From contig CAVYSE010000006.1 of assembly GCA_963771075.1 (NCBI GenBank), positions 1-64,000 of the forward strand: a DNA stretch of 64,000 bases, read 5' to 3'. The notes under the pieces were generated by a model. That model saw only the letters and a list, made by a program, of their open reading frames with translations. It had not been told where the DNA came from and ran no database searches. Within the stretch, counting starts at the first letter, position 1; each line of letters begins with the position of its first letter. The DNA comes from a candidate division FCPU426 bacterium. GTDB lineage: Bacteria > Oederibacteriota > Muellerivitia > Muellerivitales > Muellerivitaceae. This document shows, in pieces, positions 1 to 6,031 of this stretch. The position numbers and the translations under genes are program-made.

Positions 1-1
1 A

Positions 2-235
2 GAGGCATTTGCTGGGAATGTGGGTAGTGCAGCCGCTGCTGCTTTAGGTGGACATATTGGGATTTTACCAAGTTTAATTGCGGGACTATTAACCAATCCA
101 AGTTTAAGTATTCCTTCTAATTCAGATACAGCATCTTCATCACCTGATATTTCATACGACCCTAACAATGATGTTCAGTGGGTTACTGACCATTCTTCAG
201 ATCCCAATAATGATATTTCGTGGATTACTGATTGA
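2..235 (+). CDS. 3' end of a gene entering the window; probable C-terminal (toxin) tip of an Rhs/polymorphic toxin
   Basis: Frame is open from base 2 (EAFAGNVGSAAAAALGGHIGILPSLIAG...) to TGA 233-235. It has a Gly/Ala-rich hydrophobic segment, is AT-rich, and is followed by a small membrane gene and an Rhs core fragment. The toxin call comes from context. Confidence 0.4.
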   Translation, partial: EAFAGNVGSAAAAALGGHIGILPSLIAGLLTNPSLSIPSNSDTASSSPDISYDPNNDVQWVTDHSSDPNNDISWITD

Positions 236-278
236 GAGATGTACGCTGGTAAAGCTTTCTTTTTTTAGGAGAATAAAA

Positions 279-638
279 ATGGTCGCTTTTGTCGTATTGG
301 GATTAGTGGGAGGGGGGCTCATAGCGGCCTTGATGGCTATTTATCTAAGATATGCTTTTATAAATTTATCAAAATACGATGGCGGTGTTTGGGCTTTTGG
401 ACATTTGTTTTCTGTTGTTGGTATTTTATTTATTTATATCCCGCTTTCGAGTTTTTGTGTTCATACGATTTTAAAACAAGATTCTAATAAGCTTTTGTCT
501 GATCTTCGCCTTTTTTGGGTAGTGCCTTGGATAGTAACAACGCTGTTTTGGATGGTTAAAATCGCCAAGAAAAAAGAAGAATTGCGAAAAAAAGAACCGC
601 CCAAGCCGGAAGGTCCGAAAAAGATAAAATGGATTTAA
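279..638 (+). CDS. Small multi-pass membrane protein, putative immunity protein
   Basis: AGGAGA RBS before ATG 279; about 3 hydrophobic segments and a Lys-rich tail; AT-rich; lies directly after the putative toxin tip. Confidence 0.55.
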   Translation: MVAFVVLGLVGGGLIAALMAIYLRYAFINLSKYDGGVWAFGHLFSVVGILFIYIPLSSFCVHTILKQDSNKLLSDLRLFWVVPWIVTTLFWMVKIAKKKEELRKKEPPKPEGPKKIKWI

Positions 639-707
639 GAATTGAACGATCTGATAAGCGACCGCCGATGCAGGTAGTGGCGACGGCCCCAAAACGGGGC
701 GACGACC

Positions 708-1322
708 GTGGTAACCGTCAATTGCCCAAACAATCAGCTAGTGAATTTTGATCCCAACGGCAACACCGCATCCGATACCGCCTTCAATTACTTGAGCGAC
801 GGAGAGAACCGCCTAGCTGTGATCAACATGCCTGGTGGATCCCCGACAGGTTCTGCCGACACGGTGGCGTTCCAGTACGACGGACGGGGAAGAAGGGTAG
901 GGATCACAGCCCTGAACGCAGGGGGTCCGGTGACCAGTGTGGGCCAGCTTTCGAGTGCCGCCACCGTCGCTTCCTACACCTACGTATGGGCGGGGAACCG
1001 TATCTCGGAGATGAGGGACTCAACGGGCACCCAGGTCTTGAAGAGGTTCTACAGCCAGGGGGAACAGCAGGTCAACGGGACCCAATCCACCCCTTACTAC
1101 TACACCAAAGACCACCTGGGAAGCGTTCGAGAGGTCACAGACTCAACCGGAACCGTGCAAGCCCAGTTCGATTACGACCCCTACGGCAGGCAAAGGCAGA
1201 TCCAGGGGACTTTCCAACCCACCTTCGGGTACACTGGGCAATTCCAGGAGACCACCACAGGGCTTAACCTGCACATGGCTGTCGCAAAAAGGATGGTGTG
1301 CAACACTAGCTGTCGAAATTAA
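708..1322 (+). pseudogene. Orphan Rhs repeat-associated core fragment, truncated
   Basis: YD-type repeats (FQYDGRGRR) and core motif YYYTKDHLGSVREVTDSTG...YDPYGR...FGYTGQ. It breaks off after TTTGLNL, before the conserved RxYDP...DPxG end of the core. Confidence 0.85.
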
Positions 1323-1347
1323 GGTTTTTAAGAATGAGAGAAAAAAT

Positions 1348-1503
1348 ATGGTACCGAAGAAATCAACTATAAAATTTCAAACCCTTGATTGGTCGCGGAA
1401 TTTTTGGTTGTTCACGTTAGAGGTAATTTTGCTCGGTTCGTTTTTTGTAATTCCCCAATCCCTTAGTGCTCAGATGTATAAGGGGTCAGTCATCAATTAT
1501 TAA
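1348..1503 (+). pseudogene. Short ORF consisting mostly of a signal peptide, apparently truncated by the left end of the RAYT element
   Basis: MVPKKSTIKFQTLDWSRNFWLFTLEVILLGSFFVIPQSLSA|QMY, then it reads into the inverted repeat (1482) and stops at TAA 1501-1503. Below the ORF-track cutoff. Confidence 0.4.
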
Positions 1504-1505
1504 TA

Positions 1506-1534
1506 TTTACAAGTTGGAGGCAATCGGTTAGCTT
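1506..1534 (+). promoter_or_regulatory. Possible sigma70-type promoter of the transposase at the inner edge of the left inverted repeat
   Basis: TTTACA-17 bp-TAGCTT, ending 9 bp before ATG 1544 (near-leaderless transcript). Confidence 0.35.
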
Positions 1535-1543
1535 GTCGGGGCT

Positions 1544-2485
1544 ATGAGAAAACCTAGACTTCTTTATCTCGGCGGCTTGTACCACGTGATTGCCAGGGGT
1601 AATCAACGTCAAAAAACATTTTTGGCCAAGGTTGATTTTCTTAAATATCTGGAACTATTAGGCGAGCATTTGAAAACGCGTGAAATAAGGCTTTATGCCT
1701 ATTGCCTGATGCCCAACCATGTTCATCTGTTGGTAGAACAAGCCGGTGATTATCCCTTGTCCCGGTATATGCATCGGCTCCAAACGGCTTATACCCAATT
1801 CTTCAACCGGACCCATAAGAAAATAGGCCATCTTTTTCAGGGTCGGTACAAGGCCATATTGGTGGACAAGGATTCATATCTGTTGGAATTGGTTCGATAC
1901 ATTGGGTTGAATCCGTTCAGGGCGAAATTGGAGGAGAAGCCGGGAATATATCCCTGGACCAGCCACCAACAATATTTGGGCCGAGAGAATAAGCCATTGG
2001 CGAAAGTGGAAGTTGAACCAGTTTTGGCTCTTTTCAGCAAAAGGAAGAAAGAAGCCCAAAAGGCCTATTTGAGGTTCGTAAAGGAAGGCATGGGGGAAGG
2101 CCATCGGGAGGATTTGTATGATGTCCGGCAGGGACATATTTTAGGGGACCAGGAATTCGAACAAAAAGCGCATCAAAAGGCCCAACGTCCGCTGTCAGGT
2201 GCGAGTTTGAAGGTGAAGAAAACATTACCTGAAATATGGAAAGTACTTTTGAAACGGGAAGGGCATAGTGAAGATCCGACAGGCCATCGCCGAAGCCGTT
2301 TAATGGAAGAAGCGGCCTATCTAGCGTTTGAGGGGTGTGGGATAAGCCAAAGAGAGATAGGGGTATATTTTGGGAAAAATCAAAGCGCAGTCAGCCAGGC
2401 CATTAGGCGTTTGGAGATGAAGTGGAAAGAACAGCCCGGGGAAAAGGAGAAGTGGTTTCGATGGGCGCGACATTTAGAATATTAA
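1544..2485 (+). CDS. REP-associated-type tyrosine (Y1 HUH) transposase with C-terminal HTH domain
   Basis: YHVIARGN, HUH motif YCLMPNHVHLL, GHLFQGRYKA, catalytic-Tyr region RYIGLNP, YPWTS; C-terminal HTH-like segment ISQREIGVYFGKNQSAVSQAIRR. Confidence 0.92.
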   Translation: MRKPRLLYLGGLYHVIARGNQRQKTFLAKVDFLKYLELLGEHLKTREIRLYAYCLMPNHVHLLVEQAGDYPLSRYMHRLQTAYTQFFNRTHKKIGHLFQGRYKAILVDKDSYLLELVRYIGLNPFRAKLEEKPGIYPWTSHQQYLGRENKPLAKVEVEPVLALFSKRKKEAQKAYLRFVKEGMGEGHREDLYDVRQGHILGDQEFEQKAHQKAQRPLSGASLKVKKTLPEIWKVLLKREGHSEDPTGHRRSRLMEEAAYLAFEGCGISQREIGVYFGKNQSAVSQAIRRLEMKWKEQPGEKEKWFRWARHLEY

Positions 2486-2792
2486 TATATGATGACTGAC
2501 CCCGTTCATGAAGATCCGACAGGCCATCGCCGAAGCCGTTTAATGGAAGAAGCGGCCTATCTAGCGTTTGAGGGGTGTGGGATAAGCCAAAGAGAGATAG
2601 GGGTATATTTTGGGAAAAATCAAAGCGCTGTCAGCCAGGCCATTAGGCGTTTGGAGATGAAGTGGAAAGAACAGCCCGGGGAAAAGGAGAAGTGGTTTCG
2701 ATGGGCGCGACACTTAGAATATTAATAAATGATGACTGACCCCGTTCTCTTAGAATATTAATAAATGATGACTGACCCCGTTCACCCCGTTC
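2269..2792 (+). repeat. Nested tandem duplications of the element's right end (periods 240, 36 and 9 bp)
   Basis: 2269-2507 is repeated at 2509-2747 with 3 substitutions; CTTAGAATATTAATAAATGATGACTGACCCCGTTC is repeated at 2749-2783; ACCCCGTTC is repeated at 2784-2792. All copies end in CCCCGTTC. Confidence 0.95.
2489..2725 (+). pseudogene. Duplicated C-terminal HTH portion of the transposase, forming an intact 78-aa mini-ORF
   Basis: EDPTGHRR...RHLEY is identical to the transposase C-terminus; the start ATGATG is supplied by the inverted repeat. Confidence 0.7.
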
Positions 2793-2893
2793 ACTACGCT
2801 TTTGCCTGGACATTCTTTTTCATAGGTGACCCCTATTCCAATGTCAGAGACAGGTTTCCACCGCACCAGTTCCTGTGTGGAACTGGTACAACT

Positions 2894-2916
2894 GCCCATG
2901 TCCAACCGAGTGGAAG
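2894..2916 (+). repeat. 23-bp direct repeat, left of the AbiE cassette
   Basis: GCCCATGTCCAACCGAGTGGAAG; 22/23 identical to 4909-4931. Confidence 0.85.
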
Positions 2917-2942
2917 TCCACAAGGTTAGAAATATTAAAAAA

Positions 2943-3033
2943 TGTGTACATAAACTACACATAATCATATAAAAATAAACTATTTATGAAAAATAGTTAA
3001 TATTAGTGCTAAAATGTGTAGTATGACTACACA
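2943..3033. promoter_or_regulatory. Two palindromic operators (TGTGTA-N7-TACACA), probable AbiEi autorepression sites
   Basis: TGTGTACATAAACTACACA (2943-2961) and the perfect 8-bp-arm TGTGTAGT-ATG-ACTACACA (3015-3033), which overlaps the probable start codon. Confidence 0.65.
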
Positions 3034-3811
3034 AAATAAAAGCAAAATAAACAAAATAATCACAGAATGGCCCCCGCATGGGGGCATGGTCACTCAAAAG
3101 TGGCTAACCGAGAAGGGCGTTAGCAGGTTTTTAGCCCGGGAATATGTAAAAGGCGGCTGGCTAAAGTCTGCCGGGGGAGGCGCCTTTTACAAAATCGAAG
3201 GAAGAGCCGAACCTTCTTGGGAGAGCGGACTCTACACCCTCCAACACCTGCTTGATCTGCCTATCCATGCCGGGGGTGAAACCGCCTTGGTGAGGCAGGG
3301 TTATGGCCATACCGCACAAATGAATTCCTTATTTCATCCCGTTTATCTCTTTGGCCCCCAGGGAATAAAGCCGCCGTCATGGTTCCTCAAATTCAATTGG
3401 ACCGATAAGATCCAATACCAAACTACGGATTTTATCCCCTATAAAAAAGAATTCGGCTTAACCGAGGACGAAAAGACCGGCATCACCCTCTCCTCCCCCG
3501 AACGTGCCATGCTCGAAACCCTGTTGTTAATGCCCCAACACACCACCTTTGAGGGCGCGGCCCATTTTATGGAAGGTCTTTCCACATTAAGACCCGACTT
3601 GGTTATGACACTCTTAAAAGCCTGCCAATCTTTTAAAGTGAAGCGGTGTTTCCTATATATGGCGGAGCAAGCCAATCACGCTTGGTTTAAAGAACTAAGC
3701 CTTTCCAAAGTGAAATTAGGCAAAGGCAAAAGGGTTGTGGTGCCAGGCGGCACCTTCGATTCCAAATACCAAATCACTGTTCCTGCCAAGTCTTCGGTGA
3801 ACGTTCCATGA
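3023..3811 (+). CDS. abiEi: Type IV toxin-antitoxin antitoxin, AbiEi family
   Basis: N-terminal KINKIITEWP..WL..GVS...YVKGGWL; SSPERAMLE; EGLSTLRPDL..LL..C.SFKVKR; overlaps the AbiEii start (ATGA). Alternative start 3014. Confidence 0.9.
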   Translation: MTTQNKSKINKIITEWPPHGGMVTQKWLTEKGVSRFLAREYVKGGWLKSAGGGAFYKIEGRAEPSWESGLYTLQHLLDLPIHAGGETALVRQGYGHTAQMNSLFHPVYLFGPQGIKPPSWFLKFNWTDKIQYQTTDFIPYKKEFGLTEDEKTGITLSSPERAMLETLLLMPQHTTFEGAAHFMEGLSTLRPDLVMTLLKACQSFKVKRCFLYMAEQANHAWFKELSLSKVKLGKGKRVVVPGGTFDSKYQITVPAKSSVNVP

Positions 3812-4725
3812 AAGATACCGGTTACTTCAAACAAGCAAAGCTTCTATTACAGGTGCTTCCTTTCTTTGAAAAGTCAGGCAACTTTGCCCTCAAAGGTGGA
3901 ACGGCCATCAATCTTTTCATGCGGGATATGCCAAGGTTTTCTGTCGATATTGACCTTACCTACCTTCCTCTCAATCCGCGTGAAGAAACCTTAACGGATA
4001 TATCCAGGTCCCTTAAGGACGTAGCCGCCCAGGTTAGGCGGGTTTTAGGCGCCAAGGTGGATGAGCAAACTCTCAAAGGCACGGACACCACCGTCAAAAT
4101 GACCGTTCGGCAGGCGGAAGCCACGATCAAGGTGGAGCCCAATTTGGTTTTAAGGGGGACCATTTATCCGCCAGTCCAAGCGAAGCTTTGTAAGAGAGCC
4201 GAAAAAGAATTTGAATTATCAATTACGACCAAAGTTCTATCGATAGCCGACATTTACGGCGGAAAGATATGCGCGGCCCTGGACCGGCAACACCCCAGGG
4301 ATTTTTTCGACGTTAAGCTTCTTTTGGAAAACGAGGGTTTAACCGATGAGGTTCGTCGGGCTTTCGTGGTCTATCTCGCGAGTCATGACCGGCCGATGAA
4401 CGAACTTCTTAAACCCAAATGGAAGGACATAAAATCCGTTTTCGAAAAGGAGTTCAAAGGCATGACCCTTGAACCGGTGGATTTGAAGGATTTGTTGGCG
4501 GCCAGGGACGAAATCTTCCGTTCCATTCATAAGGATCTGCAAGATAACGAGAAAAAGTTTTTGCTGTCACTCAAGGACGGAGAACCGGACTGGACCCTTT
4601 TGGACTTGCCGAACATCGAACGTTTGCCGGGTTTGCGGTGGAAGCTAGGAAATATCCGCCAAATGAGCGCCCAAAAGCGGCAGGAACAATCGGATCTATT
4701 AAGAAAAGCTTTAAACTGGAAATGA
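3808..4725 (+). CDS. abiEii: AbiEii/AbiGii-family nucleotidyltransferase toxin
   Basis: FALKGGTAINLF..PRFSVDIDL and GKICAALDRQHPRDFFD motifs. Confidence 0.93.
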   Translation: MKDTGYFKQAKLLLQVLPFFEKSGNFALKGGTAINLFMRDMPRFSVDIDLTYLPLNPREETLTDISRSLKDVAAQVRRVLGAKVDEQTLKGTDTTVKMTVRQAEATIKVEPNLVLRGTIYPPVQAKLCKRAEKEFELSITTKVLSIADIYGGKICAALDRQHPRDFFDVKLLLENEGLTDEVRRAFVVYLASHDRPMNELLKPKWKDIKSVFEKEFKGMTLEPVDLKDLLAARDEIFRSIHKDLQDNEKKFLLSLKDGEPDWTLLDLPNIERLPGLRWKLGNIRQMSAQKRQEQSDLLRKALNWK

Positions 4726-4908
4726 AATGCCGGGGAAAGCCTCCCCCCTGTGAAGGGGGGCGCTATAGCCAACCCGCTTCGCGGGACGCTATAGGACAAG
4801 CTGAAAAATAAATTTTAACCCAACCCATACCAAATTATCGATTCCCTGAATATAAATTATCCCCGTTTCAGGCTCTATTAACCCAAACCCTATTTCAGGG
4901 GTGAAACC

Positions 4909-4931
4909 GCCCATGCCCAACCGAGTGGAAG
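4909..4931 (+). repeat. 23-bp direct repeat, right of the AbiE cassette
   Basis: GCCCATGCCCAACCGAGTGGAAG; 22/23 identical to 2894-2916. Confidence 0.85.
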
Positions 4932-5242
4932 CCTGCCGCATCCTGTTGACGCAAGAACCGAGGAGGGAAAGGTAGAGGCGAAAAGAAAGCTTAGAAAAGC
5001 CCCCGTCCAAACGCGGCCCGCTGCGCACCCGCCCCCAAATCATTGATATCGCCCACCGTGGAGATGCTTGACCCCTAACGGATGGCTATTGCGGATCGAC
5101 CAAATTTCATCCGACTTTTTAATTTTTAATCTTAAACCAGACAAAAAATGTGCAGAAAAATAATTTAAAAATTAATTAATTGACGGTGAAACGGATTCTC
5201 CAATAAAGTTCCCGAAACCATCCGGCAAACGAAAGGAAAAAA

Positions 5243-6031
5243 ATGATCGAAAAATCGAAAGGCCCCAAAAACCGCAGCATCAAAGGTTACGGCTGGATTC
5301 CGGATTTGCCCGACCACCGGGACCACCTTTACGCCGCGCCTCCGGTTTACTTGACCTCCCTGCCGGCCAAGATGGACCTGCGGAGCGAATGTCCGGGAGT
5401 TTACAACCAGGGACAGTTGGGAAGCTGTACCGCCAATGCCATCGCGGGCGCCATCGAGTTTGACCAGATGAAGCAAAAGCTGCCCAAGATTTTCGTCCCC
5501 TCGCGGCTCTTCATTTACTACAACGAGCGCGCCATCGAAGGCACGACCAGCCAGGACAGCGGCGCGCAGATCCGCGACGGCCTCAAGAGCGTGGGCCAAC
5601 AAGGGGACTGCCCTGAAACCGAATGGCCCTACGTTATTTCCAAGTTCGCCGTGAAGCCGCCCGCCAGCTGCTACAAGAACGCCATCCCATACCGCGCCCT
5701 GACCTACCAAAAGGTGGCGCAAAACCTGAACCAGATGAAGGGCTGCCTGGCCTCGGGCTACCCCTTCGTTTTCGGGTTCACGGTCTATGAAAGTTTCGAG
5801 AGCCCGCAGGTGGCGAAAAACGGAATCGTCCCCATGCCCACGCCCAACGAGCAGACGTTGGGGGGCCATGCGGTGATGGCCGCCGGTTACGACGATTCCA
5901 AACAAATGTTCATCGTGCGAAATTCCTGGGGGGCGGGTTGGGGCCTGAAGGGTTATTTCATGATGCCCTACGCCTACCTGACCCAGTCGGGACTTTCCAG
6001 CGACTACTGGACCATCCGTGTCGTGGCTTAA
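5243..6031 (+). CDS. Papain-like C1 family cysteine peptidase (xylellain-like)
   Basis: QGQLGSCTANA (catalytic Cys), GGHAV (His), VRNSWG (Asn), SRLFIYYNER, N-terminal YGWIPDLPD; no signal peptide. Confidence 0.93.
   Translation: MIEKSKGPKNRSIKGYGWIPDLPDHRDHLYAAPPVYLTSLPAKMDLRSECPGVYNQGQLGSCTANAIAGAIEFDQMKQKLPKIFVPSRLFIYYNERAIEGTTSQDSGAQIRDGLKSVGQQGDCPETEWPYVISKFAVKPPASCYKNAIPYRALTYQKVAQNLNQMKGCLASGYPFVFGFTVYESFESPQVAKNGIVPMPTPNEQTLGGHAVMAAGYDDSKQMFIVRNSWGAGWGLKGYFMMPYAYLTQSGLSSDYWTIRVVA

Follow-up and report, generated by a model that had tools for sequence, protein, structure and literature searches.

The window, a stretch of 64,000 nt from a candidate division FCPU426 bacterium, contains an array of nested tandem copies of the right end of a TIRtron, all sharing one outer boundary. 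We interpret these copies as scars made by the element's own enzyme through nicking, inward re-copying and early re-ligation, a reading to which we assign a probability of about 45%. That the TIRYT enzyme is the cause of the scars is itself highly probable. End duplication is a hallmark of the family at both terminal inverted repeats (TIRs), and the window array is likely an unusually clear, recent and nested case of this family-wide scar, mapping the cut site of a HUH transposase that has received little study.

The element and its enzyme

The element measures about 1.03 kb and is a TIRtron (TIRYT, TnpA-Y1 subclass 2.1). The names TIRtron and TIRYT come from Di Nocera et al. 2013 (PMC3733652), and subclass 2.1, with the motifs NHVH and Y[IV]HLNP, from the text of Quentin et al. 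2018 (PMC6006769). The features are listed in Table 1.

Table 1. Features of the TIRtron, its right-end array and the adjoining foreign ends (window coordinates)
Feature	Position	Strand	Description
Left TIR	1482..1507	+	26 nt, begins GGGGTCAG; 96% complementary to 2718-2743 and 2754-2779
TIRYT gene, 313 aa	1544..2485	+	PF01797 (Y1_Tnp) 6e-16; HUH; C-terminal DnaA_C-like HTH
Copy 1 of 240-bp unit	2269..2508	+	Final 217 nt of the gene, first right TIR 2478-2503, outer GTTCA
78-aa ORF	2489..2725	+	HTH tail alone; arises from the 240-bp junction
Copy 2 of 240-bp unit	2509..2748	+	Second right TIR 2718-2743; junction base T2748
36-bp-period copy	2749..2783	+	Contains third right TIR 2754-2779
9-bp-period copy	2784..2792	+	C-run and outer bases; outermost boundary of the element
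Tail (~33 nt) of multi-copy IS110-family element	2793..2826	+	PF01548 + PF02371; elsewhere sits inside TIRYT TIRs
TGACCCC and outer bases	2827..2840	+	Remnant of the right TIR of another TIRYT; junction also in runs X1 and X2

The PF01797 match bore out the first-pass annotation of the gene as a Y1 HUH transposase; the enzyme being of the HUH type, a DDE insertion sequence was ruled out. The HUH motif is N58-H59-V-H61 (NHVH, residues 58-61), and YIGLNP at residues 119-124 is a single change away from the subclass motif. H59, H61, Y119, N123 and P124 were unchanged across 75 aligned sequences, and because of this invariance Y119 is the putative catalytic tyrosine. The Bac_DnaA_C/HTH match of the protein was weak (E 0.0083; 16.6 bits, below the cut-off of 31.5), and the domain was found at E 0.01 or better in 52 of the 75 aligned members. 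In the predicted structure (pLDDT 92) the C-terminal domain was helical and confident. The top Foldseek match of the model was TnpA-REP (4ER8, 5.9e-06), followed at ranks 2-10 by IS200/IS605 TnpA (IS608, ISDra2); a PDB sequence search gave one match, which was spurious.

Both ends fit the TIRYT consensus GGGGWSAS (GGGG[AT][CG]A[CG]), and the left TIR is the same in all four genome copies described below and in G004, a genome of a different genus. Of 76 inverted repeats, the 25 longest included none that forms a short-loop hairpin at an end of the element, and Rfam gave no matches in 1-6000. The motif TGACCCC alone is not enriched in the window (17 occurrences, 14.9 expected).

Upstream of the element, window 1-1481 holds pieces of Rhs type: an open frame that ends at 235, a membrane ORF of 156 aa (168-638) and an Rhs fragment (708-1322, PF05593). 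An ORF from 1348 with a signal-peptide-like start continues into the left TIR and appears to have been truncated by the element. A 41-nt partly palindromic repeat at 1266-1306 (also in C15, C27 and C1) has 30 BLAST matches in the genome; it lies within 300 nt of 4 of the 15 TIRYT genes, whereas the 1-kb test range takes in about 1.5% of the genome. Downstream, an AbiEi/AbiEii type IV toxin-antitoxin pair (3014-4725) is bracketed by a 32-bp direct repeat (2885-2916 and 4900-4931, 88%).

Nested duplications at the right end

Nested duplications of 240, 36 and 9 bp with one fixed end were present as first described, and exceeded chance as judged from other CCC sites (10 of 3000, see below). The array consists of a 239-nt direct repeat (2269-2507 and 2509-2747), a 35-nt direct repeat of period 36 (2713-2747 and 2749-2783) and a direct repeat of period 9 (2775-2783 and 2784-2792). 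Alignment of the 239 nt confirmed that the 240-bp copies differ at three positions (2389/2629, 2473/2713 and 2488/2728). All copies share the terminus CCCCGTTC, at 2507, 2747, 2783 and 2792. The bases at the junctions are A2508 and T2748, and A2793 is assignable to either side; microhomology at the 240 junction is zero and every junction 31-mer occurs once in the genome.

The duplicated DNA spans the TIR partners listed in Table 1 and therefore consists of gene tail, right TIR and 4-5 outer bases. The common end was thus correctly placed just beyond the right inverted repeat. The further idea that variable lengths of flanking DNA are copied did not hold, the copied part here being the transposase tail, the TIR and only 4-5 outer bases; duplication of host flanking DNA was ruled out, the copied unit being the element's own end. 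Copy 1 of the 240-bp unit carries the end alleles T2473/T2488, as does the copy on C18, and copy 2 carries C2713/A2728, as do the copies on C3, C15 and in G004, with T2629 private to it. The 78-aa ORF, without Pfam matches at 0.001, is likely a by-product of the 240-bp junction.

Eight of the 16 listed public sequencing runs were examined, all as Logan contigs, in which absence proves nothing. Among the matches listed, the 240 and 36 junctions were not found in the contigs of these eight runs, and according to the depth table no contig bridged 2473-2539. In a contig of run X1, position 2738 was joined to 2784, without the 36 and 9 copies, and in a contig of run X2, 2498 was joined to 2784, without all three duplications; a Logan contig could, however, skip a long loop. 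In both runs the right flank was the same as in the window and met the element end without the 9-bp copy. As the joined form lacks the 9-bp copy as well, a single-end form of the site exists elsewhere. The window array is likely derived and its duplications are likely recent, since in two other runs the site lacks part or all of them.

These missing junctions, and the two runs carrying the site without them, are also what an assembly or polishing artefact of a multi-copy element would give, and polishing could create mosaic alleles. Such an artefact is nevertheless very improbable: the junction 31-mers are unique in the genome, comparable duplications occur at 38 loci from many independent assemblies (mostly as units of 7-20 bp) and in the complete isolate record L317, and the assembly shows none at 70 ends of its other multi-copy elements.

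End duplications throughout the family

Loci were drawn from relatives, named genomes and metagenomes; judged by record titles, several phyla are represented. A gene match was present in 253 of 255 loci and a TIR pair in 153 of these, and 125 passed a stricter filter, which removed L050, a locus with visible duplications at both ends; in a held-out set 25 of 54 loci passed. Among plasmid records, 7 of 13 matches were examined and one had a canonical TIR pair, and the viral contigs searched contained no relative. Each end was tested for a tandem duplication spanning the terminal C-run of the TIR. A search for the pattern GMCCCCN{3,30}TGMCCCC over 31 genomes was too unspecific.

In the first set 36 of 245 TIR ends carried a duplication (left 19/123, right 17/122) and in the held-out set 10 of 47, giving 46 of 292 ends at 38 loci, three of them from this genome. 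Applied to further CCC sites of these loci, the test was positive at 10 of 3000, and a more generous test was negative at all 70 ends of 35 multi-copy elements of other kinds in this assembly. These 35 were left from 62 repeat loci after 6 near contig ends had been skipped and 21 TIRYT or IS110-in-TIR loci set aside. Within this genome 17 of 3673 TGACCC sites passed the test, 10 of which are TIRs by inspection. Because related loci are not independent and Fisher p-values therefore overstate, we place weight on the effect size.

Duplications with a common endpoint thus do occur at homologous loci, as had been anticipated, and their excess over both controls makes the link to the enzyme well founded. 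A process confined to the right end, as first supposed, was ruled out by the equal scar rates of left and right ends.

Most scars are units of 7-20 bp, below read length, and in most duplications the locus-specific outer bases are repeated exactly. In L317 one constant 30-bp unit is repeated. Long units recur: 120 bp in G014, 161 and 275 bp in this genome, and about 175 bp nested with 16 bp in G016. Left-end repeats about 650 bp apart (C28:305930-306580) and 512 bp apart (G014 C4, L309) restart at the same outer bases; being interrupted by other DNA, these were left out of the counts.

Mobility, mosaicism and foreign ends

In the genome (28 contigs) 23 matches to the element were found, four of which are near-identical full copies (99% or more) at different sites. 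The copy in G004 is identical to the window enzyme at 311 of 313 aa. The unit therefore moves, and judged from this identity it likely crossed genera recently; a TIRYT homologue is present in 41 of 61 related genomes. The proposal of a local duplicator rather than an ordinary transposon was accordingly dropped, and nothing indicates selection for a role as diversifier. No benefit of the duplications to the host was apparent.

Five copies (window 1482-2508, C18, C3, C15 and G004) show mosaic combinations of alleles at 17 variable sites, suggestive of frequent recombination among them. GTTCA directly follows the TIR in C6, C18, C3 and G004, and the C18 copy has its own 8-bp duplication ending at this GTTCA boundary. 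In the window element the shared array end is the boundary that travels with the element.

As 2793-2840 consists of the tip of an IS110-family element and a TIRYT TIR remnant, the end of the window element abuts the last ~45 nt of a different element. Comparable junctions, in which the outer boundary of a TIR meets an internal or terminal piece of another element, are present at C6:91053, in G014 (L309) and in runs X7 and X8. At C6:91053 and in these two runs, internal stretches of the window element are attached to TIR ends of other origin. At C6:91053-91210, outside the window, two 66-bp internal pieces of the window element (2342-2407, then 1942-2007) lie between foreign TIR ends, a joint also present in run X11. 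The IS110-family element of 1334 bp (PF01548, PF02371) is found at C19:78942-80275 and seven more loci; its insertion point within TIRYT TIRs is the TGA of TGACCCC, and at least two TIRYT families are affected. Short TIR-bounded units occur at C18:82556-82976, 95547-95967 and 96997-97692 and at C16:19681-19899; the ~420-bp units of C18 hold the transposase tail only, and one has a 275-bp end duplication.

Alternatively, ends of other copies could have been inserted one after another, each by a one-ended event, at a TIR hot spot, which would build the array with no local re-copying. The two end haplotypes of the 240-bp copies, the mosaicism of the copies, a GTTCT end like that at 2744-2748 in run X8, TIR ends with differing outer bases stacked in L076, L217 and L218, and the foreign DNA at 2793-2840 all agree with this. 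We nevertheless hold it to be improbable, since the exact repetition of locus-specific outer bases in most duplications is given only by local copying, and since at position 2335 copy 1 of the 240-bp unit agrees with copy 2 and differs from C18.

Geometry of the junctions

Positions are given relative to the third C of the TIR. In 43 of 46 duplications the outer end overlaps +5 to +13. Outer ends, at about 4-12 nt outside the TIR, are common within arrays, and inner ends vary. The inner starts fall at -6/-7 in 19 of the 46, at -5 to -1 in 20 and deeper than -8 in 6. The parser, which missed the window array, L037, L180R and L202L, detected seven arrays with three to six copies; in each of them the outer end is common (+6 to +9) and the inner starts differ. 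A counter-example seen by eye is the right end of L180, in which the inner ends are fixed and the outer ends variable. Outer bases 1 to 6-7 are T-rich and partly common between copies.

Among 42 junctions of units of at least 9 bp, 13 were blunt, 9 had one or two extra bases, 10 had 1 nt of microhomology and 10 had at least 2 nt. In simulated blunt joins 56.5% had no microhomology and about 16% had 2 nt or more; the latter class made up 10 of 33 observed. Microhomology is thus enriched and not required. A fixed cut dinucleotide was not found at either the inner or the outer junction; among blunt junctions C^T was seen at 3/14 outer and 5/14 inner ends, and the dinucleotides were mixed.

Direct repeats of at least 5 nt flanked 16 of 120 elements (13.2% of random pairs) and repeats of at least 6 nt flanked 8 of 120 (3.0% of random pairs), so that 5-nt target duplications were not in excess in these 120 elements. 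Two DNA searches of five related genomes yielded no empty sites, and the rows returned by flank-pair BLAST of 128 elements were self-matches. In L030, L038, L164 and L212 the outer flanks of the left and right TIR are mutually inverted over 10-45+ nt.

Proposed mechanism

HUH cleavage leaves a 5'-phosphotyrosine and a free 3'-OH (PMC3333891). Building on this chemistry, we propose that the HTH domain would keep the enzyme on the TIR, where it would nick the strand reading inward, a few bases ahead of the GGGG run, and remain tyrosine-linked to the element-side 5' end. The 3'-OH on the flank side would then prime host strand-displacement synthesis into the element. The new strand would halt early, mostly in or just past GGGGTCA and sometimes after 36-275 nt, and its 3'-OH would attack the phosphotyrosine, so that it is rejoined to the displaced end. 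Each round would add one copy, leaving the outer end unchanged and creating a new inner end. If the attacking 3'-OH came from a strand primed at the TIR of another element, stacked elements and end fragments such as 2793-2840 would result. The duplications may thus be by-products of an aborted rolling-circle-like transposition step.

This nick-extend-religate route would account for the fixed outer end, the variable inner ends, the symmetry of the TIRs, the tolerated unpaired bases at junctions and the stacking. That 22 of 42 junctions lack microhomology and 9 of these contain one or two extra bases fits a joining step needing just a free 3'-OH. The nicked strand would be the inward-reading one, strand being a property that sequence alone cannot show. 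Since the 240-bp copies carry different end haplotypes, both present elsewhere, the route further requires gene conversion or a join in trans. Action on a duplex TIR is an assumption, given the report in PMC3333891 that TnpA-REP does not bind double-stranded substrates. The fixed inner end at the right end of L180, the constant 30-bp unit of L317 and the microhomology excess count against the re-copying route.

The cluster of inner starts at -6/-7 and the C^T inner starts of blunt junctions point to a second cut, on the other strand. In an alternative that builds on this, the enzyme makes two cuts in each event. These could be staggered nicks, at C^TGACCCC on the outward strand and at an outer position on the inward strand, followed by fill-in and rejoining. 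In a BIME-like version, the outward strand would be cut both times, first at a variable inner site and then, on the newly made strand, at the fixed outer site. The TIR consensus GCC-TGA resembles the iREP-I site of TnpA-REP, TGCC^TGA (in PMC3333891), and the fixed inner start at the right end of L180 agrees with two cuts. We regard two cuts as unlikely, though worth serious consideration: 26 of 46 inner starts lie in the C-run or beyond -8, without a common dinucleotide, the three inner starts of the window array are not C^T sites in register, and the extra bases at 9 of 42 junctions suit polymerase-made ends better than clean cuts. The excision scar expected of two facing TIR tips gave 2 matches against 3 in the control.

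Alternatively, the enzyme may merely nick, or block a fork, at the TIR, with host repair making the duplication when a 3' end at the outer site realigns after slippage or switches template. The microhomology excess and the many units that restart within the C-run agree with this, and at least 6 outer bases are common to the left and right flanks in 13 of 120 elements, against 0.7% of random pairs, which suggests end-to-end switching. With more than half of the junctions, that of the 240-bp unit included, devoid of microhomology, we consider host repair as the source quite unlikely.

If nicking, re-copying and re-ligation are correct, the scars tell where to seek the cut, 4-12 nt outside the C-run at both ends, and predict the tyrosine-bearing strand and the expected product. 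They would be natural evidence for a nick-extend-religate amplification so far only modelled for REP/BIME arrays. The genome studied here offers an intact, recently moved and horizontally transferred copy, and a compact site-anchored nick-and-ligate enzyme could serve as a DNA tool.

A broader and somewhat doubtful proposal is that TIRtrons are widespread active HUH transposons both ends of which act as rolling-circle-type origins on duplex DNA, an HTH-guided tyrosine nuclease nicking outside each TIR and ligating the bound end to any nearby 3'-OH. If true, one reaction would explain transposition without target duplication, nested self-duplication, stacking and the capture of gene pieces between TIRs, by a transposition chemistry distinct from those of IS200/IS605, REP and IS91.

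Comparison with known systems

The window element shares with described TIRtrons a RAYT-like Y1 HUH enzyme, a DnaA_C/HTH tail and GGGGWSAS TIRs (texts of PMC3733652 and PMC6006769), and TIRs are also described there as dispersed, dimeric or clustered (PMC3733652). Beyond these descriptions, we report a recently mobile unit and quantified nested end duplications at both TIRs. A mechanism, a cut site or end duplication was not found in the text available from PMC3733652 and PMC6006769, the main text of the former having no match to 'duplicat', and our literature search found no paper on end duplications in TIRtrons; Figure 9 and the supplements of PMC3733652 may hold cases. The first-pass annotation named no characterised precedent for the pattern. 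Our literature search agrees as far as TIRtron scars are concerned, but the class had already been named and a nick-extend-religate model exists for TnpA-REP: in the BIME amplification model of Ton-Hoang et al. 2012 (PMC3333891, Fig. 7B), a nick, extension of the 3'-OH and re-attack add a tandem unit.

TnpA-REP (RAYT) is the closest solved fold (4ER8) and shares the 5'-phosphotyrosine chemistry. Unlike the window enzyme, it is described as binding single-stranded REP hairpins with a GTAG guide and cutting at C^T, and REPtrons appear not to move as a unit (PMC3333891). The window element differs from a REPtron in its TIRs, HTH tail, lack of a fixed dinucleotide, variable unit length and mobile gene. 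Its assignment as a REPtron/RAYT was rejected on the score of 60.4 bits against profile NF047646 (cut-off 80) and on the four copies at 99% or more flanked by TIRs, as opposed to a single non-mobile gene with GTAG-type REPs.

With IS200/IS605 TnpA (IS608, ISDra2) the enzyme shares the Y1 HUH core (PF01797), and as in that group target duplications are not in excess here. In general outline those enzymes have about 150 aa, subterminal hairpins and one active strand, whereas the window element has a protein of 313 aa, inverted ends and symmetric scars. Membership of IS200/IS605 was ruled out by the length of 313 aa, the motifs NHVH and YIGLNP and the TIRs, as against about 150 aa, DH[VI]H, Y[IV]ENQ, subterminal hairpins and no TIRs.

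IS91 elements and Helitrons also combine a HUH nick with flank-primed strand displacement and imprecise termination. They have one origin and one terminator, with read-through past the terminator into the flank; IS91-type elements encode a Y2-type enzyme and have distinct ori and ter ends. An IS91-type element was ruled out by the Y1_Tnp domain and by ends that are inverted copies with equal scar rates. In the window element, unlike IS91 and Helitrons, the two inverted ends appear to act alike, and the duplications run into the element.
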